The notes beneath the pieces were generated by a model, which saw nothing but the letters and a program-made list of their open reading frames with translations, had not been told where the DNA came from and searched no databases. From IMG/VR virus record IMGVR_UViG_3300028567_000401, positions 1 to 64,000 of that record: a stretch of DNA of 64,000 nt; one strand, given 5' to 3'. Positions 1 to 21,793 of the stretch are shown piece by piece (the stretch's first letter is position 1; every line of letters starts with the position of its first letter). A program made the position numbers and the translations under genes. The DNA comes from a virus (Duplodnaviria > Caudoviricetes).

Positions 1-3000
1 CATCTTGTGAAAAACCATATGAGACTATACCACTCGCACGATACGTTATTGAATTCGTTGTTGTTAAATCATGCCCATTTTCTGTACTATCATAAAATGT
101 GCCACTAGCCTCTTCAAAATCCCAACATGCAACTAATCCACTAGTAAATGGATTGTGAATTGGTGATGGTGTTATAGATGACGTTCTCGATATTGATATA
201 CTTGGTGTACTGGATACTGATAATGATGGTGTTATAGTATTAGATACAGATAAACTGGGCGTATTTGATACAGATAAACTTGGTGTATTAGATACAGATA
301 AGCTTGGAGTATTTGATATAGATAAACTAGGCGTATTTGATACTGATAATGATGGTGTTATAGTATTAGATACAGATAAACTGGGCGTATTTGATACAGA
401 TAAACTTGGCGTTCTAGTATTAGATACAGATAAACTGGGCGTATTTGATACAGATAAACTTGGCGTGTTAGAAACTGATAAACTTGGAGTGTTTGATACA
501 GATAAGCTTGGAGTATTTGATATAGATAAACTAGGCGTATTTGATACTGATAATGATGGTGTTATAGTATTAGATACAGATAAACTGAGCGTATTTGATA
601 CAGATAAACTTGGTGTATTTGATACAGATAAACTTGGCGTGTTAGAAACTGATAAACTTGGAGTGTTTGATACAGATAAGCTTGGCGTGTTAGAAACTGA
701 TAAACTAGGCGTATTTGATACTGATAATGATGGTGTTATAGTATTAGATACAGATAAACTTGGAGTATTTGATACTGATAATGATGGTGTTATAGTATTA
801 GATACAGATAAGCTTGGAGTATTTGATATAGATAAACTAGGCGTATTTGATACAGATAAACTTGGCGTTCTAGTATTAGATACAGATAAACTGGGCGTAT
901 TTGATACTGATAATGATGGTGTTATAGTATTAGATACAGATAAACTGGGCGTATTTGATACAGATAAACTTGGTGTGTTAGAAACTGATAAACTAGGCGT
1001 ATTTGATACAGATAAACTTGGCGTTCTAGTATTAGATACAGATAAACTGGGCGTATTTGATACTGATAAACTTGGTGTTCTAGATATAGATATTGATGGT
1101 GTTGTTGTTGGTGTTGTTGTTGGCGTTATTGATGGTGTTACAGTTGGGCTTGTTGATGGTGTTGGCGTTGGTGATGCTGGCATACATGTAATGCCATTTC
1201 CATTATTATATAAATAAGTTATATCGGTTTGATTTAATTCTCTAGAAAATATCGCAAACGCATCTACATATCCATATAAGCTATGAATTAAGTCCAAATC
1301 ATTTCCAATCATTGTATATGTTGTATATGATCCGGTATATGATGGCGCATTACTAAAACTTAGAGTGTCAATATAATATCCATCGCCATAAAATTTTAAT
1401 TCATAATTATTATTAAAAGTAATGACTATATGATGCCATAATTGATCCATTACAATATTTATGGCTTTTTGATCTAATACTCCATCATTTATTATACTAA
1501 AATATATACTACCTTCAAGTTCATTATTAAGAACTAAAAACATATAAAAACCACCAGACATATCTTCTTTTATACGACCATATAGTAATCTTATACCTGT
1601 TGAACCAGTCACAACTCTTAACCAAAGAGATATTGAAAACTCTTGTAAGTCAAGGCTATCACCTATAGTTCCGGCATTTCCAATAACAGAATTATTACTA
1701 AGGAAACCAATGGAATAATTATCAACTATTCCAGACGCCTGATAAGTAACATTTATTGAAGCATCTAAATCATTATGATAAGCTGTAGAATCATAAAGTG
1801 TTCCACTTGCTTCTTCACAATTCCAACAAGCTATTAATCCACCTAAATATGGATTAGTGGGTATCGATGGCGTTATCGATGGTGTTCTTGAAATTGACAA
1901 ACTAGGTGTATTTGATATCGACAAACTAGGCGTATTTGATATCGATAAACTAGGTGTATTTGATACAGATAAACTAGGTGTCTGAGTATTGGATACAGAT
2001 AAACTAGGTGTATTTGATACTGATAAACTAGGTGTCTGAGTAATGGATATAGATAAACTAGGTGTATTAGATATTGATTCACTTGGTGTATTAGATATTG
2101 ATAAACTAGGTGTGTTTGATATTGATATACTGGGCGTTTGAGTATTGGATACAGATAAACTAGGCGTATTAGATATTGATAAACTAGGCGTATTTGATAC
2201 AGATAAACTTGGTGTATTAGATACAGATAAACTTGGAGTATTTGATATAGATAAACTTGGCGTATTTGATATTGACAAACTAGGCGTCTGAGTATTAGAT
2301 ACAGATAAACTTGGCGTATTTGATACAGATAAACTTGGTGTATTAGATACAGATAAACTTGGTGTATTAGATATAGATACTGATGGTGTTTGAGTGTTAG
2401 ATACGGATAAACTTGGCGTTTGAGTATTGGATACAGACAAACTTGGTGTATTAGATATAGATACTGATGGTGTTTGAGTGTTAGATACGGATAAACTTGG
2501 TGTGTTAGATACAGATAAGCTAGGCGTATTTGATATTGATATGCTTGGTGTTATCGAACTAGATACAGATAACGATGGTGTTATAGTTGGTGTTGGTGTC
2601 AATGATAACCCAGGTGTCTCAGACATCGATATCGATGGTGTCATAGTACTAGATATTGATAAACTTGGTGTATTAGAAATTGATAAACTAGGTGTCTGAG
2701 TATTGGATACAGATAAACTTGGTGTGTTCGATATTGATTCACTTGGCGTTTGAGTATTAGATACAGATAAACTGGGTGTATTAGATATTGATAAACTAGG
2801 TGTGTTTGATACAGATTCACTAGGCGTTGAAGTATTAGATACAGATAAACTAGGTGTATTTGATATCGACAAACTAGGTGTATTTGATATTGATACACTA
2901 GGCGTGCTTGATATTGATGAAGATGGTGTCTGAGTACTAGAAACAGATAAACTTGGTGTACTAGTAGGTGATACCGATCTTGTTCTAATTGGAGTAAATG

Positions 3001-4204
3001 ATGGTGATGGTGTATTAGAACTCGAAATCGATATTGATGGAGTAGCCGTTTGAGTTGGAGACATAGATGGTGTTGTAGTTGGCGTCTTTGTTCTCGTTGG
3101 TGTTTGTGTTCTCGTTGGTGTTCGTGTTGATGATCTTGATGGTGTATGTGTTATTGTTGGTGTTACTGTTGGAGATACCGAAGGTGTTGGTGGACGCCTT
3201 GATGTCGATGGTGATATACCAGTACTTGGCGTTGTTGTTCTCGATACTGATGGTGTTTGTGAAATAGATGATGATACAGATAATGATGGTGTTCTTGTTC
3301 TTGATGGTGATGGTGTTATTGATGGTGTTCTCTGTGGTGTATGTGATGTTGATGGTGTTACTGAACGTGACGGGAATGATGGTCGATAAAGTGTACTTTC
3401 CGCAACATTTGATGCATAAAATCTAACAGGAGAATCACTACATCCAATTCTAGTATTACTATTATCTTCATAAATAGTATATGTATAATTAGTTTTATCT
3501 ATTACTACTTTATGATACATGTCATTTTCTTCATTAAATGACTGTACATAAGATTTATTGGAATTCAAAAAACTCATTGTACTGCCGTCTAATGCATTAA
3601 AAAACCTAGCAGTCATGTAAAATGTGTTTCCTGAAATAGATGTACCATCAAGAACAGTATCATCCTGAAACCAATATATATACATGTTTTCTTTGTTTCT
3701 ATAATTTGAACCCATGAAAACCGGTACATATACATATTCACCTATTGGTGTATAAAAAATTTTTTCACCAAAAGGTATTGGTAAATGTTTTGTAAAAACT
3801 AATTTTCTATTAATACTACTTGGTTTTTCCCCATCAGGAACTTTATAAAATTCTAATCTAAAAAAACTTGTATTTTCACTTCTCAAAAGTTTTGAATTTG
3901 CTTCTGGTGACAATCCTACATATTCATAATCTAGAGAATATTGTGGTAAATAATTTCCATCAAAAAAGTAAAAATAAAACCAAACATCACATTGTATAAT
4001 TTCTTCACCATTTGTAGTAATAACACAATTATTATGACTATATCTAACAGTTTCAAAATTTACGGCAGGATTTATTATTGACTTGAGAGTTTCGATCTCA
4101 AATTGTTGCATAGATTCTTCCCATCCTACATCTAATCCAAATTTTGTTTCTTGATTTATAAGAATGGTACTATTAGTATTTGTTGTTTGTTGACGAACTC
4201 TCAT
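1..4204 (-). CDS. Large virion-associated protein, 3'-truncated by the window edge (>1400 aa): N-terminal structural domain, long Ser/Thr/Pro repeat stalks and two LamG/ConA-like jelly-roll domains
   Basis: Manual translation from ATG at 4204 (MRVRQQTTNTNSTILINQETKFGLDVGWEESMQQFE...) stayed in one frame in every segment read, down to position 2. It is absent from the ORF track because no stop lies in the window. LamG-like motifs at about 1210-1860 (GLIACWNCEEASG, FSISLWLR, WHHIVITF, AIFSRELNQTDITYLYNNG); a second copy starts at about 165 (GLVACWDFEEASG). Confidence 0.85.
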   Translation of the reverse strand, partial: MRVRQQTTNTNSTILINQETKFGLDVGWEESMQQFEIETLKSIINPAVNFETVRYSHNNCVITTNGEEIIQCDVWFYFYFFDGNYLPQYSLDYEYVGLSPEANSKLLRSENTSFFRLEFYKVPDGEKPSSINRKLVFTKHLPIPFGEKIFYTPIGEYVYVPVFMGSNYRNKENMYIYWFQDDTVLDGTSISGNTFYMTARFFNALDGSTMSFLNSNKSYVQSFNEENDMYHKVVIDKTNYTYTIYEDNSNTRIGCSDSPVRFYASNVAESTLYRPSFPSRSVTPSTSHTPQRTPSITPSPSRTRTPSLSVSSSISQTPSVSRTTTPSTGISPSTSRRPPTPSVSPTVTPTITHTPSRSSTRTPTRTQTPTRTKTPTTTPSMSPTQTATPSISISSSNTPSPSFTPIRTRSVSPTSTPSLSVSSTQTPSSSISSTPSVSISNTPSLSISNTPSLSVSNTSTPSESVSNTPSLSISNTPSLSVSNTQTPSESISNTPSLSVSNTQTPSLSISNTPSLSISSTMTPSISMSETPGLSLTPTPTITPSLSVSSSITPSISISNTPSLSVSNTPSLSVSNTQTPSVSISNTPSLSVSNTQTPSLSVSNTQTPSVSISNTPSLSVSNTPSLSVSNTPSLSVSNTQTPSLSISNTPSLSISNTPSLSVSNTPSLSVSNTPSLSISNTPSLSVSNTQTPSISISNTPSLSISNTPSESISNTPSLSISITQTPSLSVSNTPSLSVSNTQTPSLSVSNTPSLSISNTPSLSISNTPSLSISRTPSITPSIPTNPYLGGLIACWNCEEASGTLYDSTAYHNDLDASINVTYQASGIVDNYSIGFLSNNSVIGNAGTIGDSLDLQEFSISLWLRVVTGSTGIRLLYGRIKEDMSGGFYMFLVLNNELEGSIYFSIINDGVLDQKAINIVMDQLWHHIVITFNNNYELKFYGDGYYIDTLSFSNAPSYTGSYTTYTMIGNDLDLIHSLYGYVDAFAIFSRELNQTDITYLYNNGNGITCMPASPTPTPSTSPTVTPSITPTTTPTTTPSISISRTPSLSVSNTPSLSVSNTRTPSLSVSNTPSLSVSNTPSLSVSNTPSLSVSNTITPSLSVSNTPSLSVSNTRTPSLSVSNTPSLSISNTPSLSVSNTITPSLSVSNTPSLSVSNTITPSLSVSNTPSLSVSNTPSLSVSNTPSLSVSNTPSLSVSNTPSLSVSNTLSLSVSNTITPSLSVSNTPSLSISNTPSLSVSNTPSLSVSNTPSLSVSNTPSLSVSNTRTPSLSVSNTPSLSVSNTITPSLSVSNTPSLSISNTPSLSVSNTPSLSVSNTPSLSVSNTITPSLSVSSTPSISISRTSSITPSPIHNPFTSGLVACWDFEEASGTFYDSTENGHDLTTTNSITYRASGIVSYGFSQD
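170..1190 (-). repeat. Coding tandem repeat array A: 24-bp TPSLSVS(N/K) units with 30-bp variants carrying an extra TI or TR dipeptide
   Basis: Near-identical DNA units such as gatacagataaacttgg and gatactgataatgatggtgttatagtatta recur dozens of times on the + strand. Confidence 0.95.
1865..3400 (-). repeat. Coding tandem repeat array B: TPSLS(V/I)SN units with TQ inserts, grading into a degenerate T/P/S/R linker
   Basis: Recurrent gatacagataaactaggtg and tgagtattggatacagat units at about 1880-2990; low-complexity TPS/RTP sequence to about 3400. Confidence 0.95.
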
Positions 4205-4227
4205 TATAATTTATCCGTTTCTTATAA

Positions 4228-7200
4228 TTATAATCTTTCTGCAATTTTAGTAAACATCCACCAAGCCGCATATGCTTTCATATTAGCATTAAGTGGCTGT
4301 GAATGTGATGAAGCACAATTATACCAATCCACATTTACTGTATGTGAATTCTGCCAATTTATGGCCCAGTTTCCACCATCGTAATTACACCCATCATCTG
4401 CACCAAGATTTAAATAATCAACGCCATTAGGATCATACCTTTCAATATCAGCGAAATCAAATAAAATCCGATTGTTTGTTGCACAATGTGCTCTAATTTG
4501 TTCATTTCTTTGATGTAAATTACCTGATGAACCAGTACCATCAAGATGTCCTGTCATATATACAAATTTAACAGGACGACTAGCATATTCATTTTCAAGA
4601 CTAGCCATTAAACTTAAATAATTTGACATAACAACAGAAGATGATAAATAACTTAATTGCCCACACCATGACCACATTACAACATTGCAATTAGGATGAG
4701 AATTAAGATATGCCCGCGTTTGATTATAAAACGCAGTATAATCGCCACCACCACCTAAATCTGCTCCGCCTCCACCATAAATTCCATGATCATGAATAGA
4801 TAATCTATTTGCACTATGTATATCAGAATTTATAAAATCAAATTTAGGCGAGCCACCCATCACACTATTCATAAGTCCAGTCATACCTTGAATAATTTGT
4901 TCACCATGAGATGTATGTTCATATGCGATTAGTAATTTAGATTTTGCATTAGATATAGACACATCACTAAGGGTATTTAACACAATATATCGCGAAATTG
5001 TGTGATTCGCAATAATTGAACCACCAACAATAGTTGGAGGACTTTGTGTTGGTGTTCTAGATAACGATATTGATGGTGTCCTAGATAATGACATTATTGG
5101 TGTTCTACTTTTCGACGGTGCTGGCTGTGATGCCGATGGTGTTCGTGAATTTGATGGTGTACTCGGTGGCGATACACCTGGTGCTAATGTTTCATATGCT
5201 CCTATATCTGGTGCCCCAAAAATACTTCTACCTTCAATATCATTACTGAATCCAAGATATGCTCCAGCGTTAATTGCTGGTGAACCAGATTGTAAATGAA
5301 AATCATTACCAGAAACAAAAAGAGGATCTGCACTTATTGAATTTATATCTTGTGTTGGATATTTTGCTCTCCATTGTGCAAAAGTAGTATATGTTCCATC
5401 ATCTGTATATGCTAGAATAGCTACATTATATAAATTATTATCAAATGTAAACTTAGGTGTCATATGTGATGGATTGCCATATCTTATTGCTGGATTTGAA
5501 CATGTTTTAAAAATATTATTTTTTATTTCACAGTTAATGATATTTCCGCGATCTACCCATATCATAACATGACGAGCATTAGATGAATCCGGTCTTTGAT
5601 TTACACTCCATGAAGTCGCGTTAACACAAGTATTATTATAAAAATTCACATTTTTCATTGTTACACTTGAATCTTCTGCCCATGTTTCATATTCATAATA
5701 ACAATTCCATATTCTATTATATGACATTTTCACATTGCTCTGGGTAAAGTTTACACCGCCTTGTGGCGAAATACCAGCATCATAACAATCATGTATATTA
5801 TTATATCTTATTTTAAGATCATTTACTCGTTGCCACATTTGAACACCATTACCCATTCTATACGATGGATCACTTGGCACCCACATACCCCCAATCCAAG
5901 AAATATCACAATATTCAACAATTCCATGACTACATCCATTAATGAATATAATTCCGTTATTACCGCTATATCTCACATCTAAATTACGGAGAATAATAAA
6001 ATCAGAATTTGAAACTCGTATAACTTCTTCAGTTGAATATCCATCAGCACAAATATATGCTCCACCTATTTCAATATGTGAATAATACGATCCCGGATTT
6101 GATGTTGAATATAAATAAACAAATCTATCTATTGGACTTATATACCATTGACCCTGTCCTACGCATCCACTTAATGTGGTTCTTTTAATACCACAACTTG
6201 CTTCATTATTAAAAATTAAATTTGCAACATCACTATATGTTGTAACTTGAGTAGTTGTTCGCCAAATATTTCCGCTATACACAGTCCATTGACTTGTAGA
6301 ACTATAATCTTTAGACCCCCATATTCTTGGCTTATTTCCTGTACCATATGCATCAAAAGTTATTGGTTTTGGATTGAATGGCCAGAAATCAACTGCTGCT
6401 AAAATACCATTAGTCAATCGTTGTCGTCCAGAATCAGTAAAACGTAACCCGTCAGTTGTGTCTTCAGCACGCATACTATATGGACTTGTTGGATTTTTCA
6501 TTATAGTATATCCATCTACTACATAATCAACATTTATCGCATTATTTTTAATCCAGTTATTTACATTTTCAAGATTTGTTTGACGTGCTAATGTCCACCA
6601 ACTTGCACTACCGAATGGCGTCAATGTAACAGCTATTACCTTTGCTCCACTATTGCGAGCATTATTATACATTGTTTGTAAATTATTTTGTATTGTTGAT
6701 ACGCTCGTTCCTGCTGATATATCACTTATACCGCCAAATATTATTACGTAATGATGATCACTATTATTAATAACATCAGCACTAAATCTTGATACCATTT
6801 GACTAGTTGTATTATCATTAACTCCCTTATCATATACACGATAAATTGATGTTAATTCAGTTTGTAATTGACTTGGAAATCCACCAGATGTTAAACTATC
6901 ACCTATACAATATATTCCTGTTGTTGGCCCGGCATTTCCACTATTTTTGATATATAAATGTCCTCTAAATGTGTCACCTCTTCTAAAATAAACAGTTGAT
7001 CCTGCAGGAATATTCATTGAATTTATTTTACTTAATGTTCTCCATGGAGAATTAATTGTACCATTTCCACTAATATCATCACCATCCGCTGAAACATAAT
7101 AAGCATTTTCTGGTGATTGTTCTCTTCTACTAGAACTAGGAGTTCGTGATGGGGTTGGTGTTCGACTTGGCGGTTCCGGAGCAACAGTAACAAATTCATA

Positions 7201-10200
7201 TGCTCCAATTGCTGGTGGCGTATTCCATCTATTTCCTGCTCCATCATACGTTAAACCAACATTTACACCTGCACGTAAAAGTTTTGATGATGATGAGGGT
7301 TTTAAAAAATCTAGAACCGGTAATGCCCCATTTACCCTAGGTGCATCCATACCAACTGAAGAAAGAGATTTGAAATCTGAATTCGATAAACTAAGTGGAA
7401 TATCCCATGAATTATGATCGTGAACTATGCCGCTTGAACGAAACGCATCTGGTCTAGCATTATTATAAGAAACATTATTGCGGAATGTTACTGTTCCACT
7501 TCTATAAGTAAAATTAAATAAAAATCCTTGTGAACCATTTCCGTATGATGTATTGTTATACATATTTACATCAACAAATGCACCGTCATCCATAGATTCA
7601 TCAAATCCAATTAATCTATTTTCAAAACATAAACAATTTATGACAGTTCTTTGGATACCAGATTCTCTACCAAACACTTTTCCAAGTTTAATTCCTGATC
7701 CATTTCCATTACCGCCAGGGCCCCATCCATTTTTAAATGCCCAACAAGTATCAAGTGTGATATATCCTCCTCTATAAGAGCCATCTGATGCAAAGAAATC
7801 AAATCCATCATCACTATTTCCCCATGCTCGACATCTAGTTAATGTTAAATGACAAGGCGCACCTGCTTGATAAGATGTTAATGTGAATCCATTTGCATAT
7901 CCTCCAGCATCAGTATAATCATAACAATTATATGCGTCGCAATCAATATAATGATTATAATCACTAAGTCCACTAGAAGAAAAACCATCCCCACAATCAT
8001 GAACAACCATTCGTTCTATTATAAAATGACTTGATCTAAACAATCTAACACCAACAGCAATAGGGCAATTTCTTACTTTGCCATATTCTGTAAAGTTTCG
8101 TATTGTTAATCCTTTTAAATGATAATATGAACAATCTTCAAAATTCAATCCATAATGCCTTGCATTTCCAACAACATCTCTACCATCAAGTATTGGCGTT
8201 TGACCCGGATATGCCCATATTTTTATATAATTCGATGCTGTTCCGCTTCTATTTAATCTCACCGCACCATTATATGCACCACTTATTAATCTATTAGCAG
8301 GATAATAAACACCACCCATTATATATACTGTATCGCCAGCAGTCGCAACATCTAAAGCATGTTGCCATGTTGCCCATGGTTGACTAAAAGTACCGGGATT
8401 CGAATCATTACCATTTGTTGCAACATAATATGCATTAGGAACAACGGTTTCTTCAGGAGGACGTGGATATGTCGAAATAGAAAGTGATATTGTTGGCGTT
8501 CTAGATAAACTTCTACTTGGTGTTGGAGTTGGGCTAGCAACAGTAGTATATTCATATATACCAATACTTGGGGGGTTTCTCCATGCTCTACCATCATAAT
8601 CATTTAATAATCCAACATACACTCCCTGATATATAGCCGGTGATCCTGCTAACAAATGATAATCAGTTCCCATTGAAGCAAATAATGGATTACTCTTAAT
8701 TGTTCTAGCATATGTATAGTTTGATAATGAATTTACAAAATTTATATTAAAAACTGGATCATTATTATTACCATTACCAAACATTATATTATTTCTGATA
8801 AAAATTACATCAGCTAATTGTCGACTATCTTCGCCAAGAATTGCTCCACGATAAAAATTAAGAATAATATTATTATCTATATAAAAGTGAATCATACGAT
8901 TGACTTTTGGAATAACAATTCCATATGCTGATCGTAAATTTGTATTTGGTATGGTTGTTCCTAAACTATGAATAATATTATTTTGTATTTTTACATTTTC
9001 CAATGTTCCTTCATTAGACATTATATCAGAACATTCAATACCCCATGTTTGTAAATCAGTGCCAGATTGGCCTAAATTACTCATTAAATTAGTGTTAATA
9101 TTAATATTATATAATCTATCTATTCCACCAGTATTGTTTCGTAAAAAATATATGGCTTTTGCTACATGATGTATATTATTTTTATATATTTGAAGATATT
9201 CACAAGTTCCTTCTAATAAAATACCTCTCTCCAATGTCATTGGAGTTGTATTCCTACCTATATTATTATTATATATTCTTATCGAATATCCTACTGAATA
9301 ATAATCAACAGCATTATTAATATCAATATCACCCTTTATTCTATTATTATAAATTTCATCACCACCTAAACTAAACCAAGATTCTATAGCACAATCAAAA
9401 GGATACGTATCTGTTTCAATATCATTATGATGAATTTTTGAATTTTTATTATATCCAAGATCCCAATATTTTAATCCAACACCATGACGTTCCTTACAAT
9501 CAATATTATTATTATATATTTCAAATCCATCTTGAGTTCCCCAATAAACAGATCCATATGATCCTCCAGGATATGACGCTGAACAATTAAGTACAAGATT
9601 ATTATAAAATTTATTACCTGTACACCATCCATTATTATCTGGCATTAATGAATGAACACTTTCTTGACTAACAACATAAGGATTATCTAATGTAAATGAA
9701 TCACTTAACTGACCACTAAAATATGCAGCGCCTTGATTAAAGTTAATAAATTCACAATCATATATATGAACATTACATCTAAAACTAACTCCAATAGCAA
9801 TTAATCCAGTTCTATCTCCATCAAATCGTATACCTGATATTGATTGATTCCCATATACTGATCTACATGGGTCGCTAGATTCTAATTTAATACATGGATA
9901 ATCAGAATCATATGTTAATTTTAATGTAACTAAATTTTTACCCGCACCCATAATACTTACACTATGTGTCAATAACATTTGTCCAGTTTCTATGTAATTC
10001 CCCGGATTCAAATAAATTGTTGTACCACCTTGTGTTACTTGAGTAGTGGCATAATGTAATGTTCTCCACGGATTATTAATTGTTCCTGTTCCTGTAACAT
10101 CATTTCCATTAGGATCGACATAATAATATTCTGCTGTAGATGCTCTTGGAGACGGCGTTCTCGATGGCGTTGGTGAAGGACTTGGGCTTAGTATTTCAAC

Positions 10201-13200
10201 ATATTCATACGGTCCCATTGATGGTGGATCATTCCATGGTACACCAAGAGCATCTGTTGGTAATCCCGTTCGTATTCCCGCACCAATTAAATTACTTGTT
10301 GGACGCAACTTTAAGAAATTTAATACAGGAAGATTACCATTACTATCTCTTGCCCCATCAATTCCAGCTGAATTAACGCTAATAAATTCTAGATTTCCAA
10401 CTATTACTGGTGAATCCCAAGTATTATGATCAACATTTGTTGTATTACCAAGTTCAGCATTAGTTGAAGAATTATCAAATGCTATATTATTTTTTATATA
10501 ATATCTCATATTTGGATCCATATTAAAATGAAATCCACCCTCCCATGTTGGATCATTTCCACCATTTTTATATGAGCAATTATTATATAGAACCGCATTA
10601 CAACGTATTCCATCATCTATAAATCCCCATCTTCTATTTTCAAATGCTATATTATTATAAAAATATCTACGAACATCCGTAGTTGATTGCATCGTTCTTC
10701 CTAGTTTAAATCCATTACCATCTCCTGCGGGTTCAAAATTATCTGGCTTATATCCATTCCAAAATGACCAACAATTTTCAACAGTAACAGACCCCTCTTC
10801 TTCCCAAAGATCTATTCCATCATCACTATTCTTCCAAAATCTACAACCTCTTACAGTATTATGTCTGGTAGTAGAATCTCCATTAATACTAAATCCATCA
10901 GCATTTCCATATGGATCGTTTGATGTTAATGGATCTGCATTGTGATGAAAATCAGAATTCAAAACAAGGCAATCATCACAATTAGTTATTTTCATACCAC
11001 CCCCATTATGGTGAATATTTAATAACTCAAAAGTACAATGATTACAATAATATGCTCTAAACGCTTCCCATACCTCTGATGATAACTGTGTATAATATGA
11101 TATTTCTAAACCTTTAACATCAATATAATTACCACTCAAAAAAACCGCAGTAAACGGCCAACTATTTGGATTTATATGATTAGGTCCTCTTGTTATAACA
11201 GGTATTTCTCCAGGATATGCGTAAATTCTTATTCTATTACCGTCTGAACCACTTTTTCCATCTAACCATTGTCTTTCTCTATATTGATATGTCCCACCTC
11301 TCATGTATATTAAATTACCTGCCCTGACACTTTGCCATGCACGATTTAATGTAAACCATGGTCTCTCTATAGAGCCATCTCCATTATTATCATCACCATC
11401 TGGTGATAAGTAAATGTCTGCATCCTCAATAACAATTGGCGTTGGAGTAACAACAGGCGTAGTAATATCTGGTGGAAAAGTGATATCTGGCGGAAAAGTT
11501 ACATCAGGTGGTTCAATAGGTGGTGGCGGTAATGCCCCTTTCATATATGATAATGTATGAGTATCGCACGCGTCTAATTCTTTAGCTTTATAGAAATTAA
11601 CAATTTCATCTTTTTTATTAATATATGTTTTTTCATTTCTTAAATAAAAATTAATATTTTTATGTATATAATGCGTGTTATTTAAATATGGATAATCTGT
11701 TCCATAACCATCAGGATCAATATATCCATGATCATATAAATCTCTCCATCTCCATATTTTTTCTTTTGAAAAATATTCAGCATTTTCAGGTAAATTTTCA
11801 ACTGGAGTATTAATATCTGTTGTTTCTATATATGGTGACAATTCTCGTATTTTAAATCTATAATGTGGTTGATAAAAAATACCAAATGGATTTGTTGGCG
11901 ATGATCCTTCATAAAATTCACTTGAAGTTTGTGCATGGTTAAATACTTCAATATTAGCAACAATTTTATGAAAAGCTTCAGAAATTATTCTTTCTTTAAG
12001 TTCTTTATGATTATATTCAACAAATGCACCATATAATTCTGTACCTTCTGGTATTATATTTCCACTATTGAAAGAAATTCCATCTCTATTAAATGTTGTA
12101 TATGTTAATCCCGTTTCGAATACATTATTACTATCATCAAAATGTTCATCAATCCAAGTATTATGCATATGGAAAGAATATCCAACTTTCGGTGGATAAT
12201 TAAAATATCCATTACCATTCCTAAAAATAATAGAAATATATAATTCTGTTGGTGTATATCCTAAGTTATTAGTTATTCCGCTTAATATAAATGGTTCTTT
12301 AAAATCAAATAAAACCGATTCCATTCTATTTCTTACAACAAGAACATCATTTTCTCCAGCTGCGTTTTCATATAATATTTTTTGTTCATCTTCCCATATT
12401 GGAGACTCAAATCCAACTTTATCAAGAATATAATCATTAACTGATGTTACTATTTTGTGTTTATGTACATAATATTCTGAAGTTGTGTTTTCAATATCTT
12501 TTATATCCGTACATCTTTTACCTGTAACTAATGTATCTATAGTATTATTTACTTGTGACTTTAAAATATTAACAACATATTCTTCAGATCTATAAATCTC
12601 ATTACCTACAGAATTAATATAATAATAATTATTATTTATACAAATATATTCACCTTGATTCATTCCATGTTTTACTGGACTTGTAAGAATATACTTATAT
12701 TCATCTTCTGTTACTCTAAAAGGAATCCCATCACGACTTAAAAAAGATAAAACAGGTACAGTATCTCCACTTAATGTATATTTCATCGGAAAATTAAGAT
12801 CACGACCAGAAATATATGAAAGATAAATATTCCAATTAAATTGTGGAGCGATAAGCGCAGTAATTGTTTGATGTTCTGTCGAACCACTAATAACAAAATT
12901 AAAATTTGTAAATCCACTTAACTCATTAACCGATTGTTCTTCAGTTGTCTCATAAAATATATCATCTCTTATAAAAGCAAACTCATTATAAGGTAAAAAT
13001 CCACAAAAATTGTAATCTGAACCATCACTAACCAATGCTAATCTATTTCTCAAATATCTATATGGCGATGCTCCGGCATATATATTTCTGAAAACCATTT
13101 TTAATTTTCCATATAATTTATATCTTAATGATTCAGATCTTTCGGTAGCAAACTGTTCTGTTAAATCTATAACAATATTACGATCATCGATTCTTAGTAA

Positions 13201-13296: not shown

Positions 13297-13317
13297 TTAT
13301 AAAATATCTTTTATATA

Positions 13318-16300
13318 TTATTCAAATATTCTTGCTCCTATTTGCCAAGTGCCACTTTGATTTCTTAAGGCAGGCCTGCTTCCAACAACCCAAGTTGCCG
13401 TGGTTTGTAATCCTTCTCTAAATTCTGCTCCTAAATTAACGCCTCTTTGAATTATTGCTTTTGAACCCGGAACAAATCCTGTCATATTATTCATATGATT
13501 AAATGTTGGATTCATAACTACAGAATTTTGATCATATCCAAGTTCATTCCTCCATCGATCCCATGTATATGTTGTAGAACCCACCCTAAATATTGGTGTG
13601 TGATCACCATCTTCGCACCAATATATGTTATAATCACATTCAAAATCTGTTAAATTGTCAGCTTGATCAAAACCTATCATAGGAACTTCTCTATATCTAT
13701 TATAAAATATATTATTTTTCACTTTTGTGCGGCGAGCTACTGATATTATTCCTTGGCTTTCGCGATCTCTATTATCGTAAATATAAAGAACCGGTCTCCA
13801 TGTTCGGCCAGCCCCAGTTCCAGCAAGTCTATCCTGATAAAATGTATTATTATACCAACGAGTACCGCTTACACCTTTTACATTACCACCGACAGTAAAA
13901 CTATTCAATATATTATAACTAATTACACCTTCTGTATCGAGCATATTAGTAAAAGATTTTCTAATAATGCCCATTGGAACATGATGTAAATAGTTATATT
14001 TAATAATTGCATTATTTTCATGTCCTACAAAAACTCCATGTGTTATTACTGATGAGTCACCCGCTCCTTGCCATATAAACTGATTACCTAATATTACCAA
14101 ACGATCCAAACTATAATTGCTTTGTAAATTTTCCTCATAACCGGCTTTAAGCATATAGTTAATGGTATTTTGTGATGTTATATTATTATATAAGAATGAA
14201 ATTCTTGGATGATCAGAATTAAAATAAATAGTAATATCTACACCACCCCATGAACTTGAACTGTTAGTATATGTTTGTGATTGTAATATATACCCATCAT
14301 CGACAGTAACACATGTAGACCAGTCAGTTATTTGTCCTGGTTGATACATTCCTATATATACTGTATGAGAAACTATTGGTGATGAATTATCAAATTGAAT
14401 TCCCCATTGAAGTCCGGCTGGCGTAAAATGTTGTTGCCAACTTTGATCTTTATATACGATATATTGACCCAAGCCATTTTGTTCAGGAAATGGAATCACT
14501 TCATCTGTTTCTATATATCCAACTTCACGACGTTCAGCCATATTAACATGTTTACCACATGTACTAGTTGCGGGATTAGCTAAATCACTATCATTTCTAA
14601 CAAGATAAACTCTAGTCCATACTGGTAATGGTAATGGTGGCTCTATTGGAAGGCCATCACAATCTCGACAACCGCCATATATAGAATATATAACACTACC
14701 AACATTTGTACATCCAGCGTTAATTAATTCACTTTCATTTAAAGTTTCATCTAAAACTTCATATGCAACATTAATATCACATTCTTCACCGGCCCAAACA
14801 CCATCTCCTCGATATAAATGCCTACCTGTTGCACTTTTACCATAATAATTTCGAGATGTCTGCGAAAAACCTTCAATACATTTACGTAATCGATAAAAAT
14901 AAAGATTCTCTGGCGTTGGTGTAACCGGTCCTGGTGCTGTTACTGTTGGCGTAACTAGAATTGTTGGCGTAACCGTTGGAAATACTGTTACTGATGGTAT
15001 TCTTATATCTGAAACCGCGCATTCTTCATCTTCACCAAGATTAAATATATCTTTCGGTCCATAATATTTTATTAATAAATCCAATGACGTTCTTCCCGGC
15101 TTTAATCCAAAATAAAATAAAAATGGTGTAGATAAAACTTGTTTAGCATTTCCTAATTCGCCCCAATAATTATTCAATGTCTGTGGAACAAATGCTTCTC
15201 TAACATTATAATCAAGAGCCAATCGTTCATCTTCTGGCATTGTAGAACTTACATATAAATCTGGTTGTCGTACCCAGACCTTATTAACAACAACAAATAT
15301 ATATCCCATCCACGGATCTTTAAAATATACTCTCTCATCGTCAGTTCCACGTGAATCCGGAATTACCTGTAACCATAAATCACCTTCAACAAATCTTGTG
15401 GCATTTGGATAATCATCTGGTGCATATGGTTCAATTGTAATAACATCAAATCTTTCAAGTGAATCTTCTGTATCTCCGTTAAAACTAAAAGTACGATGAC
15501 TCATTGTCATTGGCTTTAAAATATATTCTTCTTCACCATCCGCCATCAAATAATTTGTTCTACCCATTCTATTATAGACAGGATCAAATATTTTTGTCTC
15601 AGTTACTCCACTAACAGAAAATATTCTTTGTAGCGGCATTGATACAATTTTGGTTTTATCCCATCCTTGATCATCTGAACGCGATCCAAATCTACCAAAT
15701 CCAAATCCTTCTTTCTCCCATAAATAAAAAGGAACTTCTTGCGTATAATCACCTAATCTATAATTTAAGCATAATCTCATATATGCTCCATTATTATCTA
15801 GTTTTAAATCAATCGGCGTTGGACCATATAAATTCGCAAATTTAAAATAATCATCAAAATATTCATCTTCAGGATCCATTAATTCACCATTATACATATA
15901 ATAATGAGGACCATCTATGTCAAATGCTTCAATACCAACTTCACAATTAATTGATATTAATTGAGTTATATCCCCATCAAATACTTTTGTGTTTGTTCCA
16001 AGAAGAGATTTGCTAAAGAAATCATCAACTTGAAATTTGGAGTTTGTTGTGTCAAGTCGATAATTTATTGCATATTCTACAATATTGGCAGGATCTTGAT
16101 AAGATGTATTAGTAATATCTCTTACAACTGAACATGATGGGTCTGTTCTTAAATCAGTACATATATCACCTAAGAATTCATCTCTTATACCTAAATCATA
16201 AAATGTTGTTGGATGAAGAATTTCAATATTACCATTATAAGATTGACCTGTATATTGATAGTTCAAATAATGAACAGGTGTACATCTATAATAAAAATTC

Positions 16301-19300: not shown

Positions 19301-19410
19301 TTTTGAGTAAATTTTAATGAAAGGATTTCCATTAAATCCCAGCTCTGTTGTATTTCAACATTAATTTTTTGATCTCGCCCAATATTTGTATAAATCCTAT
19401 GCTTCTGCAT
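13318..19410 (-). CDS. 2030-aa virion/baseplate-associated protein with a T/P linker and a C-terminal beta-helix-like extension
   Basis: Long ORF directly downstream of the baseplate wedge genes. PTVTPTILVTPTVTAPGPVTPTP linker, then Cys-rich segments and a C-terminal domain with YNNTFY and CDYNIYW beta-helix-like motifs. Confidence 0.6.
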   Translation of the reverse strand: MQKHRIYTNIGRDQKINVEIQQSWDLMEILSLKFTQKDIFSSGRCSEYGVVVGRISANEGYGIPNARVSIFIPEDDLDEDDPVIHALYPYKTVTDRNEDNYRYNLLPSRQQHGGHNPTGTFFDQKDILTREEVLEVFEKYYTYTVKTNNAGDFMIWGVPIGQQTIHIDIDLSDIGCYSLRPNDFLNKGYGVDQFESFFKFKSSSDIDSLPQIVSFDKTIEVFPFWGNEELCEIGITRTDFDLSERNIKIEPVAIILLSSITDDNSHSIKKNGVIRRNSGYKCNLQTSEGKIECVRFTGKSVLGSDGVTEYPELEYYNPNETINEDGVAMIAFPMNIDYIFTNELGEQEVTNEHNKGIPTSAIARFRFSLEFQSNKIATAKYLVPNLREFNPNIYGSYGGASDQPLRYGLEYSEGMLTTYQFSDVFEDYIRITPPSDQVEFSSLYYGEDAKEYKKNLILNGVSPQDYFYRFVYGKVYTVSSFQGTHVESPSSKLIGVIGNILTGGPLGGAIARKLSQVRDSFLGIKEIRPNIESDCASSTNYFPTNFAFKNRVKFNIILSHVLLFLQYIFTVVLIRGVEIIGHIIFEIGRDLQGIKILRRIGQKFEDFTYRLQERFVKELPLTIYPDCDECTSDDESYTTAGINIDDYCRCCEIALHIGVIDPYGIGPMYVRLWIDDSESGGGGLFSGNYTYSTAPGSSLLNFMYPGESARESDDNCEDVPPISYNTLDTLHLPTNILPNGTPRFVAEVFFSGTTQGFDSFTQFIQDVPDYSFYFQRNGTRYEMFISFNLWLELTGVNLRVPEELSLIYDEANPNKMVVMRLYDTYINDESDSTSELPVIETGCEKYDKLYNESITRSYIWSRTPSFDYNRRTPLDPQIGEYIDDPNFAELEINERRATHPYLMCSTIGSGSTKRMPREVDFYRRGLFRRGIGLKRYDRKTKSGLSEFRDGLFTIIPVINGKSYSLKALQEWYRRKRIGISFCGGIVNYSFIDNWLHGILYFFKFDKRIRWDTEDNYDLNQRGSKFPKELIFFNILDKNFYYRCTPVHYLNYQYTGQSYNGNIEILHPTTFYDLGIRDEFLGDICTDLRTDPSCSVVRDITNTSYQDPANIVEYAINYRLDTTNSKFQVDDFFSKSLLGTNTKVFDGDITQLISINCEVGIEAFDIDGPHYYMYNGELMDPEDEYFDDYFKFANLYGPTPIDLKLDNNGAYMRLCLNYRLGDYTQEVPFYLWEKEGFGFGRFGSRSDDQGWDKTKIVSMPLQRIFSVSGVTETKIFDPVYNRMGRTNYLMADGEEEYILKPMTMSHRTFSFNGDTEDSLERFDVITIEPYAPDDYPNATRFVEGDLWLQVIPDSRGTDDERVYFKDPWMGYIFVVVNKVWVRQPDLYVSSTMPEDERLALDYNVREAFVPQTLNNYWGELGNAKQVLSTPFLFYFGLKPGRTSLDLLIKYYGPKDIFNLGEDEECAVSDIRIPSVTVFPTVTPTILVTPTVTAPGPVTPTPENLYFYRLRKCIEGFSQTSRNYYGKSATGRHLYRGDGVWAGEECDINVAYEVLDETLNESELINAGCTNVGSVIYSIYGGCRDCDGLPIEPPLPLPVWTRVYLVRNDSDLANPATSTCGKHVNMAERREVGYIETDEVIPFPEQNGLGQYIVYKDQSWQQHFTPAGLQWGIQFDNSSPIVSHTVYIGMYQPGQITDWSTCVTVDDGYILQSQTYTNSSSSWGGVDITIYFNSDHPRISFLYNNITSQNTINYMLKAGYEENLQSNYSLDRLVILGNQFIWQGAGDSSVITHGVFVGHENNAIIKYNYLHHVPMGIIRKSFTNMLDTEGVISYNILNSFTVGGNVKGVSGTRWYNNTFYQDRLAGTGAGRTWRPVLYIYDNRDRESQGIISVARRTKVKNNIFYNRYREVPMIGFDQADNLTDFECDYNIYWCEDGDHTPIFRVGSTTYTWDRWRNELGYDQNSVVMNPTFNHMNNMTGFVPGSKAIIQRGVNLGAEFREGLQTTATWVVGSRPALRNQSGTWQIGARIFE

Positions 19411-21340: not shown

Positions 21341-21793
21341 TTATATGTTTATAATTACAAAATCTGAAGTTGAAAATGTTCCATTATTAACTGTATAGCT
21401 TAATTTAACTCGTGCTGTATATGGTTTTGTTGTTCCATCACCAATTCTAAATAATCTTGAATCTTCTTCTTCACTAGGTGTTGGAGGAGTTTCAGGATCG
21501 TTTTCTGCCGACATTATTTCTATAGAATTTATATCCAAATTTGGAATATATTTTCTTACGCCTTCTCGTATTTCATCTTCTATATGATTATGTGAAACTG
21601 CATCATTCATTTCAAAAATATATTCATATAATCTAGTTCCAAAATCTGGTAAAAAATATCTACTACCCTTTCTACATAATAATAAATGTATAAGATCAGC
21701 TCTTACTTCTCTTTCGGGTGTTGCAGTCATTCTTAAATAATTTCCAATTGCACTATCCCTAAATGGATAATCTATACCATATGTTATACTCAT
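21341..21793 (-). CDS. Baseplate wedge protein, GPW/gp25-like
   Basis: GIDYPF...LIHLLLCRKGSRYFLPDFGTRLYEYIFE matches the gp25/GPW pattern. Confidence 0.85.
   Translation of the reverse strand: MSITYGIDYPFRDSAIGNYLRMTATPEREVRADLIHLLLCRKGSRYFLPDFGTRLYEYIFEMNDAVSHNHIEDEIREGVRKYIPNLDINSIEIMSAENDPETPPTPSEEEDSRLFRIGDGTTKPYTARVKLSYTVNNGTFSTSDFVIINI

Follow-up and report, generated by a model that had tools for sequence, protein, structure and literature searches.

Three consecutive giant genes at the start of a contig from an uncultured freshwater jumbo phage, here termed P1, P2, and P3, probably encode conserved baseplate-region carriers that bear exchangeable strings of glycan-directed modules serving host recognition. 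The window, the whole stretch of 64,000 nucleotides analysed here, begins at base 1 of an 82,994-bp record, a viral contig that is 27% complete and in which genes for gp25-like, gp6-like, sheath, and hub proteins, UvsX, a gp32-like SSB, and RNR are present. P1, P2, and P3 lie directly downstream of the gp25-like and gp6-like genes, all on the minus strand, and share one layout in which a non-repetitive N-terminal part is followed by Pro/Thr/Ser linkers and modules. An initial annotation had described such a trio of giant genes with an anchor–linker–module design, and the reading frames, the Pfam and PHROG matches, and the linker positions confirm it. A chance origin of the reading frames was set aside because they remain open over 6-9 kb in DNA of 30% GC, and because fused architectures of this kind were recovered independently in relatives. 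The features are as follows.

21341..21793 (-), gp25-like baseplate wedge protein, 150 aa (GPW_gp25, PF04965, E 3.5e-11; phrog_261, phrog_43)
19490..21322 (-), gp6/Baseplate_J-like wedge protein, 610 aa (PF04865; phrog_6, E 1.8e-19)
13318-19410 (-), P1 open reading frame, 2030 aa
15043..19410 (-), P1 residues 1-1456, conserved core, carrier 1 (homologues, synteny after gp6)
14908..14997 (-), P1 residues 1472-1501, Pro/Thr/Val linker (P+T+S >=60% in 20-aa windows)
14176..14907 (-), P1 residues 1502-1745, cargo module(s) of ~245 aa between the linker and the C-terminal beta-helix-like module
13321..14175 (-), P1 residues 1746-2030, C-terminal beta-helix-like module of ~285 aa (repeated N-N-x-F/I ladders)
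4228-13296 (-), P2 open reading frame, 3022 aa
11530..13296 (-), P2 residues 1-589, conserved anchor, carrier 2 (homologues, synteny after P1)
10195..11433 (-), P2 residues 622-1034, module 1, PL9 lyase-type beta-helix (PF22842, E 1.6e-24; PDB 1ru4)
8548..10134 (-), P2 residues 1055-1583, module 2 (BH2), beta-helix-like (phrog_4577 tail protein, E 1.8e-8; end motifs)
7189..8445 (-), P2 residues 1618-2036, module 3, second PL9-type beta-helix (PF22842, E 1.3e-9; 1ru4, E 9.5e-22)
5188..7107 (-), P2 residues 2064-2703, module 4 (BH4), beta-helix-like with an embedded SGNH domain (PF13472, choice-of-anchor Q, motifs)
6406-6915 (-), P2 residues ~2128-2297, SGNH domain inside module 4 (PF13472, E 7.8e-15 over residues 2130-2292, above the cut-off; PDB 3p94, E 5.6e-10)
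4231..5025 (-), P2 residues 2758-3022, C-terminal domain of 265 aa (unnamed bacterial family)
2-4204 (-), P3 open reading frame, >1401 aa (1401 aa present), open at the contig end and incomplete
3404..4204 (-), P3 residues 1-267, conserved N-terminal part, carrier 3 (stand-alone in most related loci)
1844..3403 (-), P3 residues 268-787, stalk array B, 54 units, mostly T-P-S-[L]-S-[I/V]-S-N 8-mers and 10-mers
1205..1843 (-), P3 residues 788-1000, LamG/concanavalin-like domain 1 (PF13385)
137..1204 (-), P3 residues 1001-1356, stalk array A, 39 units, each an 8-mer or 10-mer as in array B
2..136 (-), P3 residues 1357-1401, start of a second LamG domain, which repeats the opening segment of the first and ends with the contig

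The N-terminal parts are conserved both in sequence and in position. Relatives of P1 are encoded on at least 593 IMG/VR contigs, and the gene order gp25-gp6-P1-P2-P3 is kept in all 80 fetched loci long enough to show it, with P1 always after gp6, P2 always after P1, and P3 always after P2; identity of the gp6-like protein across these loci is 65-84%. A search with the P1 core found 757 homologues (E <= 0.001). The best 120 share 47-64% identity with it, and 81 of these 120 stop within 30 aa of the end of the core, lacking any C-terminal extension. For the P2 anchor, 308 representative homologues were found at the same threshold, and the full-length ones among the best 150 are nearly all stand-alone proteins of 530-630 aa. 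Bare forms predominate throughout (P1 ~1250-1450 aa, P2 ~585 aa, P3 ~270 aa): P2 measures ~580-615 aa in about 40 of the 44 complete copies in the fetched loci, and P3 is a protein of 252-283 aa in most of them. Long versions of P2 are rare: in a set of 5.8 billion proteins, only two further clusters have the anchor in a protein of more than 1662 aa.

None of the three carriers matched a known baseplate family in Pfam, in PHROGs, in profile comparison with T4 gp7 and gp10, or, for P2 and P3, in a fold search. The P1 core had no match in Pfam, PHROG, or PDB, and hhalign comparisons of A1 with T4 gp7 and of A2 with T4 gp10 returned probabilities of at most 0.12%. Structure prediction, which the initial annotation had suggested as a check, gave AF2 models of two of the anchors with no convincing match to a solved fold. 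The P2 anchor is modelled as beta-rich (pLDDT 80.6, pTM 0.79), with a best Z of 7.5, reached over a 70-residue barrel; the model of the P3 N-terminal part (pLDDT 73, pTM 0.68) shows one helix and a beta-sandwich, with a best Z of 5.3. No T4 baseplate chain was among the fold matches of either. It is the synteny with gp25 and gp6 that suggests a location of P1-P3 in the virion. Their place after gp6 in the gene order, and their putative role as large peripheral holders of host-binding parts, recall the periphery of the T4 baseplate (gp7, gp10, gp11, and gp12), although T4 makes its binding fibre, gp12, as a protein of its own.

P2 carries the longest string of cargo, with linkers at residues ~590-621, 1035-1054, 1584-1617, 2037-2063, and 2704-2757. 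The annotation had counted four beta-helices, an SGNH fold, and an extra domain, of which the two PL9 modules and the SGNH domain were verified by profile. The PF22842 modules gave full-length alignment to PDB 1ru4 and 5olq. Module 1 aligns to residues 17-381 of the 400 in 1ru4 (Pel9A; E 4.4e-33), keeps the motifs A-D-G-F, N-S-D-D-G-x-D, and G-F-K-L-G, and conserves all four Ca-binding Asp residues and the catalytic Lys of Pel9A, their positions being confirmed in the alignment. Module 3, aligned to residues 137-390 of 1ru4, retains S-D-D-G-F-D and G-I-K-L-G and four of the five PL9 site residues, the first Ca ligand being Asn (A-N-G-F) instead of Asp. All four modules share an x-Y-Y-V-x-P/x-x-G-x-D start cap and a G-x-Y-E end. 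For BH2 and BH4, the beta-helix fold is a motif-based assignment, drawn from these shared cap and end motifs; BH2 matched DUF1565 and a pectate-lyase N-cap only weakly, and the C-terminal end of BH4 matched the NCBIfam choice-of-anchor Q model (29 bits against a cut-off of 25).

The SGNH domain within BH4 has the block I motif G-D-S at residues 2132-2134. Blocks III and V, equated by their position in the Pfam match, read G-I-S-D and D-G-L-R-F and lack the usual Asn and His. Because of these substitutions and of the Asn at a Ca ligand in module 3, some modules may bind glycans rather than cut them. The C-terminal domain of P2 had no match in Pfam, NCBIfam, or PHROG; its ESM Atlas matches, at a score of 0.97, are unnamed families of bacterial proteins 260-270 aa long, and it recurs at 48-54% identity, in varying positions, in the relatives P0394, P0395, and P0124.

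In P3, for which two or more LamG domains had been proposed, one full PF13385 domain is present (residues 850-995; E 8.7e-14 when the whole protein is scanned and 1.2e-14 for the module by itself; 52-55 bits, above the cut-off of 27.6), whereas the second has only just started at residues 1357-1401 when the contig ends. The DNA of the stalks that precede these domains contains 24-bp tandem repeats, at 1881-2964 in array B and at 237-1092 in array A. Extended P3 homologues all follow a course from anchor through PT linker to a small, varied domain. P1 had been credited with one further beta-helix. Its C-terminal ladders are indeed present, but the ~245-aa module that precedes them had been overlooked. 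The C-terminal module had no Pfam or PDB match, and the N-N-x-F/I ladders, the motifs from which it was called, suggest a beta-helix. The module at residues 1502-1745, which had no match in Pfam, NCBIfam, or PHROG, is shared by a minority of the P1 homologues (28-59% identity).

In most relatives the cargo is missing or different. P2 of the window proceeds from the anchor through PL9, beta-helix 2, a second PL9, and beta-helix 4 with SGNH to the C-terminal domain. The order in P0395 is anchor, PL9, C-terminal domain, beta-helix-like module, and P1-type module; in P0394, anchor, beta-helix-like module, and C-terminal domain; and in P0124, anchor and C-terminal domain. A cargo cassette has been exchanged between loci L008 and L086, in which gp25 and gp6 are 100% identical, P1 is 99.9% identical, and the next two genes are again 100% identical. 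At the DNA level they agree to 98.6-100% as far as about P2 residue 606 and once more from ~70 nt into P3; between these flanks the P2 cargo differs, giving proteins of 1668 and 2569 aa, each assembled in several independent datasets (JGI, ENA, NCBI, and Logan). Modules also occur on different carriers: one that P1 bears in this phage is borne by P2 in another. The family of the P1 C-terminal module comprises six sequences at 53-55% identity; it occupies the C-terminus of P1 in L002 and that of P2 in L086, and in L088-L091 multi-module proteins carry it close to their N-terminus. The proposal of a conserved anchor with swappable cargo therefore holds, given N-terminal parts that are conserved, syntenic, and alone in most relatives, and the opposite case of a full-length architecture conserved without swapping was not observed, bare forms being the rule.

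The same annotation had asked whether the cargo is closest to secreted Bacteroidota proteins, and for the PL9 module this was borne out. Stand-alone homologues of P2 module 1 share 40-51% identity with it, and the named ones belong to Bacteroidales, Prolixibacteraceae, and Chitinophagaceae; about 42 of the 120 homologues listed carry PF18962, the T9SS sorting domain. Judged by sequence similarity, Bacteroidota proteins, many of them bearing this sorting domain, are the nearest cellular homologues of the module. In P1-P3 themselves, neither a T9SS sorting domain nor a signal peptide was seen. The lineage, large and uncultured, would consist of aquatic jumbo myophages whose hosts are probably Bacteroidota.

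Several other explanations of these proteins deserve consideration. The proteins could be rigid trimeric fibres or spikes arranged end to end, in which each beta-helix trimerises as in classical tailspikes and the whole forms a long, stiff fibre, not a string of independent enzymes. The Ser-x-Ser-x-Ser repeats would then be structured trimeric beta-helical shafts with an 8-residue period, like T4 gp5C, and not flexible tethers. Known phage fibres and spikes are trimers; unlike plain T-P-T-P linkers, the stalks repeat a strict 8-mer, T-P-S-[L]-S-[V/I]-S-N, in which two alternating positions are hydrophobic; and Pfam Gp5_trimer_C matched the P3 array in the whole protein at E 8e-12. However, no Gp5_trimer_C stretch passes alone, and the region is compositionally biased. 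About one quarter of the stalk units are 10-mers, which would upset a regular register, and plain T-P-T-P linkers stand at equivalent junctions in relatives. In addition, the homology of the PL9 modules to bacterial PL9 enzymes extends along their whole length, and Pel9A is a monomer. A rigid fibre is thus unlikely, and it is more doubtful still that the modules are mostly inactive enzyme relics that act only in lectin-like receptor binding, without multi-enzyme processing. The deviating SGNH blocks III and V, the Asp-to-Asn change in PL9 module 3, the binding nature of LamG, and the several modules that belong to no recognisable catalytic family would fit such relics; but PL9 module 1 retains all Ca ligands and the catalytic Lys, Ca ligation is still possible with Asn, and depolymerase activity is common among beta-helix tail proteins (PMC5380687, PMC6966330).

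It is highly improbable that the extended proteins lie outside the virion, as enzymes freed at lysis or intracellular ones whose N-terminal parts have another role. Such a role would agree with the failure of all three N-terminal parts to match a known structural family, but it is at odds with the strict synteny directly downstream of gp25 and gp6 in the loci fetched from the at least 593 related contigs, with the large, compact, beta-rich nature of the conserved parts, and with cargo of the type found on tail proteins. The chance that the giant reading frames are assembly chimeras, in which repeats have joined unrelated contigs, appears negligible, even though the exact 3022-aa product is absent from the protein collection and the contig ends within the repeat-bearing P3. 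The frames are unbroken over 6-9 kb; the anchor-linker-PL9 junction occurs independently in L002 (76% and 46% identity); both relatives, of 1668 and 2569 aa, were recovered in several datasets; and a 2004-aa form of P1, 100% identical, represents seven member sequences on six contigs.

In the favored reading of exchangeable modules on conserved carriers, P1-P3 would be outer baseplate-region proteins of the lineage whose C-termini appear to be permissive and to point outward. Each C-terminus would have been lengthened in this sub-lineage through Pro/Thr/Ser linkers, with modules drawn from the carbohydrate-active proteins that bacteria secrete: PL9-type lyases, further beta-helix-like modules, a possibly inactive SGNH domain, the 265-aa domain, and LamG lectin-like domains on stalks. 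Such virion-borne strings may bind and cut or strip the host capsule or exopolysaccharide, giving the baseplate access to the cell surface. The cargo region would behave as a recombination cassette that is swapped as one block between genomes identical elsewhere and whose modules move between carriers, and its exchange may retarget the phage to hosts with other surface glycans, so that the cargo would help to set host range. Since near-identical relatives carry different module sets, the arrangement resembles a host-recognition kit, exchangeable and unusually elaborate, and not a machine of a wholly new kind.

A more general reading is conceivable, though we hold it only tentatively: P1, P2, and P3 together might form a baseplate display scaffold onto which standard linkers could attach any module from the secreted glycan-active repertoire of the host phylum, with modules shifting from one carrier to another, a virus-borne multi-enzyme array in which stalks set the reach of the lectins. 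Were this so, each virion would carry dozens of copies of each of five or more enzymes or lectins that jointly attack a complex capsule, and repeat stalks of variable length, perhaps glycosylated, would determine how far the lectins extend.

The cellulosome-like label given earlier describes a resemblance and not membership. As in secreted T9SS enzymes of Bacteroidota and in cellulosomes, catalytic and binding modules follow one another, joined by Pro/Thr-rich linkers, and many glycan-active modules are gathered on one scaffold. Pfam scans of the whole proteins and of single modules (E <= 0.01 or <= 1) found no cohesin or dockerin, and the modules, unlike those of cellulosomes, are fused covalently in one open frame, not assembled non-covalently; the scaffold would be the virus particle. 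Another parallel is offered by lactococcal and streptococcal siphophages, in which carbohydrate-binding modules are grafted onto evolved Dit, Tal, and neck passage structure proteins (PMC6669499, PMC7533335). There too, core tail or baseplate proteins carry optional glycan-binding modules whose presence varies among relatives. The siphophage grafts consist of one small binding module each, either inserted or appended, and the phages infect Gram-positive hosts, whereas the cargo here amounts to thousands of residues, including enzyme-type modules, in a contractile-tailed jumbo phage.

The initial annotation had also regarded the proteins as a candidate for an undescribed system. The textbook phage receptor-binding protein, however, already pairs a conserved N-terminal anchor with an exchangeable C-terminal enzyme; the novelty lies in the scale, in the stringing of modules in series, and in three core baseplate-region proteins serving as carriers. 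In the depolymerase receptor-binding proteins of Klebsiella, Acinetobacter, and E. coli phages, a conserved N-terminal anchor holds an exchangeable beta-helix enzyme, and multi-spike sets are known from PhiK64-1 and PhiKp24 (PMC5380687, PMC6966330, PMC9700779). P1-P3 share with them a conserved N-terminal attachment part and a C-terminal beta-helix of glycan-degrading type that is swapped horizontally, cassette replacement among close relatives, and the occurrence of SGNH and pectate-lyase-type domains. Two defining traits of such proteins are found here, the conserved N-terminal and exchanged C-terminal parts among the relatives and between L008 and L086, and the right-handed parallel beta-helix enzyme domain in the two PF22842 matches and their counterparts 1ru4 and 5olq. 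Depolymerase receptor-binding proteins carry one enzyme per protein and gain breadth through several separate or branched spikes, whereas here one polypeptide strings together up to five or six modules by means of Pro/Thr/Ser linkers. Unlike them, the modules studied here are borne by three baseplate-region carriers that are cargo-free and stand-alone in most relatives, and the PL9 modules resemble secreted bacterial lyases over their full length.

Downstream of the gp25-like and gp6-like wedge genes, three giant minus-strand ORFs (P1, P2, and P3) are each laid out as an N-terminal part followed by a linker and modules, as the initial annotation had proposed for this trio of virion genes. By their Pro/Thr/Ser-rich windows, P1 has a single linker and P2 has five, and P3 contains two very long arrays.

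Wedge genes, giant ORFs, and their parts (window positions unless residues are given)
21341-21793, minus: gp25-like gene (PF04965)
19490-21322, minus: gp6/Baseplate_J-like gene (PF04865, phrog_6)
13318-19410, minus: P1, ORF of 2030 aa
P1 residues 1-1456, minus: core; conservation stops at about residue 1456
P1 residues 1472-1501, minus: Pro/Thr/Ser-rich linker
P1 between linker and C-terminal module, minus: 245-aa module
P1 C-terminus, minus: module of ~285 aa with N-N-x-F/I ladders
4228-13296, minus: P2, ORF of 3022 aa
P2 residues 1-589, minus: anchor
P2 residues 622-1034, minus: module 1, PL9-type lyase beta-helix (PF22842, E 1.6e-24)
P2 residues 1055-1583, minus: module 2, beta-helix-like; weak DUF1565, pectate-lyase, and phrog_4577 matches only
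P2 residues 1618-2036, minus: module 3, second PL9-type module (1ru4, E 9.5e-22)
P2 residues 2064-2703, minus: module 4, beta-helix-like with enclosed SGNH domain (PF13472, E 7.8e-15)
4231-5025, minus: P2 C-terminal domain, 265 aa, unnamed family (ESM Atlas)
2-4204, minus: P3, ORF of >1401 aa, open at the contig end
P3 N-terminal part, minus: 267 aa, then a 520-aa array
P3 between the 520-aa and 356-aa arrays, minus: LamG domain (PF13385, E 8.7e-14)
P3 after the 356-aa array, at the contig end, minus: first 45 residues only of a second LamG domain

The window covers positions 1 to 64,000 of an IMG/VR record of 82,994 bp; the record's CheckV completeness of 27% extrapolates to a full genome of roughly 300 kb. 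The window has a GC content of ~30% and encodes a tail sheath, a baseplate hub, a UvsX-like recombinase, a gp32-like SSB, ribonucleotide reductase, and an intein-bearing DnaB-like helicase, a gene content of the T4-like or jumbo myophage type. Moraphages are aquatic phages of up to 307 kb with predicted Bacteroidota hosts and with gp25 and gp6 in their core, and the window lineage is plausibly among them (PMC12619734).

The N-terminal parts, referred to here as carriers, are conserved stand-alone proteins. An IMG/VR locus scan, seeded with the P1 alignment (that of the P2 anchor was too divergent), identified at least 593 contigs with a P1 relative. The gene order was the same in every one of the 80 fetched loci that reached far enough: gp25 (~150 aa), gp6 (610 aa, 65-84% identity), P1 (1220-1530 aa), P2 (~580-615 aa), and P3 (252-283 aa). 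An exhaustive profile-free search yielded 308 representative homologues of the P2 anchor, and among the best 150, nearly all full-length proteins measure 530-630 aa. Because the synteny with gp25 and gp6 is invariant and conservation is strong, the carriers would be placed in the baseplate.

The cultured-phage collection has no relative of P1 or the P2 anchor, and the gp6-like protein found only 25-28% matches (Flavobacterium phage immuto, Microcystis phage Mel-JY01, and a 484-kb uncultured phage). Sequence and profile searches of Pfam, PHROGs (also with sub-segments, at E ≤ 1), NCBIfam, and the PDB matched none of the three carriers (P1 core, P2 anchor, P3 N-terminal part); comparison of P1 and P2-anchor profiles with T4 gp7 and gp10 by hhalign detected no similarity, and ESM Atlas comparison of the P1 core gave nothing informative. 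The P2 anchor was modeled with confidence as a beta-rich, multi-domain body (pLDDT 80.6, pTM 0.79) and the P3 N-terminal part as a beta-sandwich with a single helix (pLDDT 73, pTM 0.68). Neither model had a convincing solved-structure match (Foldseek PDB, VIA wide, BFVD): for the anchor, the sole returns were a small beta-barrel match spanning residues 169-269 (Z about 7) and, in BFVD, the anchor's own uncharacterised family, and the best Z for the P3 model was 5.3.

Two further features lie inside the P1 core. Residues 556-574 (window 17689-17745, minus) form a 19-residue, strongly hydrophobic stretch (mean Kyte-Doolittle 2.4) that is retained in the family consensus and could be either buried core or a membrane-active segment. 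Residues ~640-930 (window ~16621-17493, minus) are poorly conserved; BLAST alignments to most homologues are interrupted near residue 630-660, and the core varies between 1220 and 1530 aa among relatives. The stretch may be a second variable region beside the C-terminus, possibly exposed.

The cargo of P2 had been described as four beta-helices, an SGNH fold, and an unknown domain, an assignment supported by PF22842 and 1ru4 matches for two of the helices and by motifs for the others. Module 1 aligns with residues 17-381 of Pel9A (1ru4; E 4.4e-33) and conserves all four calcium-site aspartates and the catalytic lysine; module 3 has an asparagine at one calcium-ligand position. All four modules begin with an x-Y-Y-V-x-x-x-G-x-D cap and end with G-x-Y-E, and module 4 terminates with the NCBIfam choice-of-anchor Q motif. 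The SGNH domain retains G-D-S and may be inactive, because G-I-S-D and D-G-L-R-F stand at its block III and block V positions. The C-terminal domain scores 0.97 in the ESM Atlas against unnamed bacterial proteins of 260-270 aa. It belongs to a stand-alone bacterial family (0.94-0.97), with Planctomycetota, Thermodesulfobacteriota, and Spirochaetota as the commonest phyla of the clusters, and any link to DUF4886 or SGNH is faint (0.77).

A kinship of the cargo to secreted Bacteroidota proteins, which the initial annotation had put forward for checking, is seen for PL9 module 1. Stand-alone homologues match it at 40-48% identity along its full length; of the 120 listed, about 42 have a T9SS sorting domain (PF18962), and the named homologues come from Bacteroidales, Prolixibacteraceae, Chitinophagaceae, and Ignavibacteriae. 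In species-representative genomes, the best large-contig match was from Prolixibacteraceae (51%), with other Bacteroidota next at 43-45%; genes of actinomycetes and myxobacteria lie near 35%. Short contigs of 9-42 kb (L093-L096 and L099), assigned to MAGs of Myxococcota, Woesearchaeota, Methanosarcinales, and Nomurabacteria, carry PL9 modules with 43-49% identity to module 1, equal to or above most Bacteroidota genes, and may be mis-binned phage contigs.

Comparison of relatives revealed that cargo is variable or absent on shared anchors, as had been predicted. At E ≤ 0.001 there are 757 homologues of the P1 core; the best 120 have lengths of 1250-2004 aa and identities of 47-64%. Of these 120, 81 stop within 30 residues of position ~1456, and the other 39 bear extensions of 117-570 aa, of several kinds. 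The ~285-aa C-terminal module of window P1 had no Pfam or PDB match, and its profile found no solved relative. Extended P3 homologues (517-673 aa) are scattered over the lineage and share one plan of an anchor, a T-P-T-P linker, and a small unrelated domain. The N-terminal half of the P1 245-aa module looked similar by eye to these small domains (Y-F-x-L-R-x-C starts), but phmmer gave no support and the idea was rejected.

Among the fetched loci, P2 extensions are confined to the nearest kin of the window: L002 (anchor plus PL9, at least 907 aa, open at the contig end), L005 (753 aa), and L008 and L004 (1668 aa each). A search of 5.8 billion proteins placed the anchor in proteins of >1662 aa in just two other clusters. 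Module orders differ between the anchor homologues P0394 (anchor, beta-helix-like module, C-terminal domain), P0395 (anchor, PL9, C-terminal domain, beta-helix-like module, P1-type C-terminal module), and P0124 (anchor, C-terminal domain). The last module of P0395 is 51% identical to the C-terminal module of window P1.

The exchange is most direct between loci L008 and L086, whose gp25 and gp6 proteins are 100% identical, as are those of the two genes after P3, and whose P1 proteins are 99.9% identical. At the DNA level the two match at 98.6-100% as far as about residue 606 of P2, and this match resumes ~70 nt into P3; between these points lie differing P2 cargoes, in proteins of 1668 and 2569 aa. 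Identity already declines in the last third of the anchor, to 92%, 91%, and 75% per 100 residues. Each P2 variant was assembled in several independent datasets.

The proposed model would have P1, P2, and P3 build the outer baseplate with their C-termini outward, bearing, in the sub-lineage of the window, linker-joined strings of glycan-active modules. LamG domains on long stalks would make first contact with the host, the PL9 lyases and other modules would cut or strip an acidic capsule or exopolysaccharide, and recombination would exchange the cassette, tracking changes in host glycans. P3 carries at least two LamG domains, as had been noted: one complete and the opening of another. Tandem repeats of 24 bp encode its arrays, which total 93 units, mainly copies of an 8-mer (T-P-S-[L]-S-[V/I]-S-N) or of a variant with 10 residues. 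Alternatively, the Ser-x-Ser-x-Ser repeats would form trimeric beta-helical shafts, making the whole protein a stiff composite fibre. This main rival is favored by the strict 8-residue period, by hydrophobic residues at two alternating positions, and by a Gp5_trimer_C signal, though a compositionally biased one, but 10-mers are frequent among the units and relatives carry plain T-P-T-P linkers. GC skew is +0.19 to +0.31 at window 1-4000 and negative across the remaining minus-strand gene block; the positive skew likely stems from the repetitive Ser/Thr/Pro codon usage of the arrays, not from a strand switch. Outside the window, a Glycos_transf_2 match below cut-off (21.8 bits; G000:C1:71971-72201, plus) lies in a 262-aa frame and is possibly relevant if the Ser/Thr-rich stalks are glycosylated.

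The cellulosome label does not hold: in contrast to cellulosomes, which use cohesin and dockerin, neither was found in P1, P2, or P3, and their modules are fused covalently. Nor is the reading as an undescribed system supported, since the pairing of a conserved anchor and a C-terminal enzyme that can be exchanged is a known rule of phage receptor-binding proteins (PMC5380687, PMC6966330), one shared by P1, P2, and P3, which also resemble structural tail proteins with optional glycan-binding modules (PMC6669499). They differ from known receptor-binding proteins in that the carriers are three core proteins, a single chain bears up to five or six modules in series, the linkers are like those of bacterial secreted enzymes, and modules transfer between carriers. 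Phages with many separate depolymerase proteins are described in the literature, where no account of such serial strings was found. Current ideas on phage host recognition are extended, not overturned.

If the proposed model is correct, modular host-recognition logic would reach an extreme on three conserved baseplate-region carriers, with >4,000 cargo residues in one phage, several enzyme types in series along a single polypeptide, and a clean swap of cassettes as the difference between two otherwise near-identical genomes. The natural carrier/linker/module junctions could serve to study cargo tolerance on a contractile-tail baseplate, and the locus could mark host switching in lake metagenome time series. 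The 265-aa, ~285-aa, and 245-aa modules are uncharacterised candidates for glycan activity against Bacteroidota surface polysaccharides.

In another phage group (L088-L091), the P1-type C-terminal module lies near the N-terminus of multi-module proteins of 1568-1685 aa (L088:9929-14635, L090:9926-14983, L091:6042-10781), and therefore serial enzyme strings are not limited to the window lineage. A search of the two records containing L088 and L090, on contigs of up to 260 kb, did not find the P2 anchor. The L088, L090, and L091 proteins combine a short N-terminus with the P1-type ~285-aa module and a pair of PL9-type modules, and are immediately preceded by a 632-aa beta-helix-like protein. Relatives of the window phage, whose own counterpart region lies past the contig end, carry a further giant ORF three genes after P3, dissimilar to the window modules in both L006:18847-24180 (at least 1778 aa) and L086:20626-27708 (at least 2360 aa).
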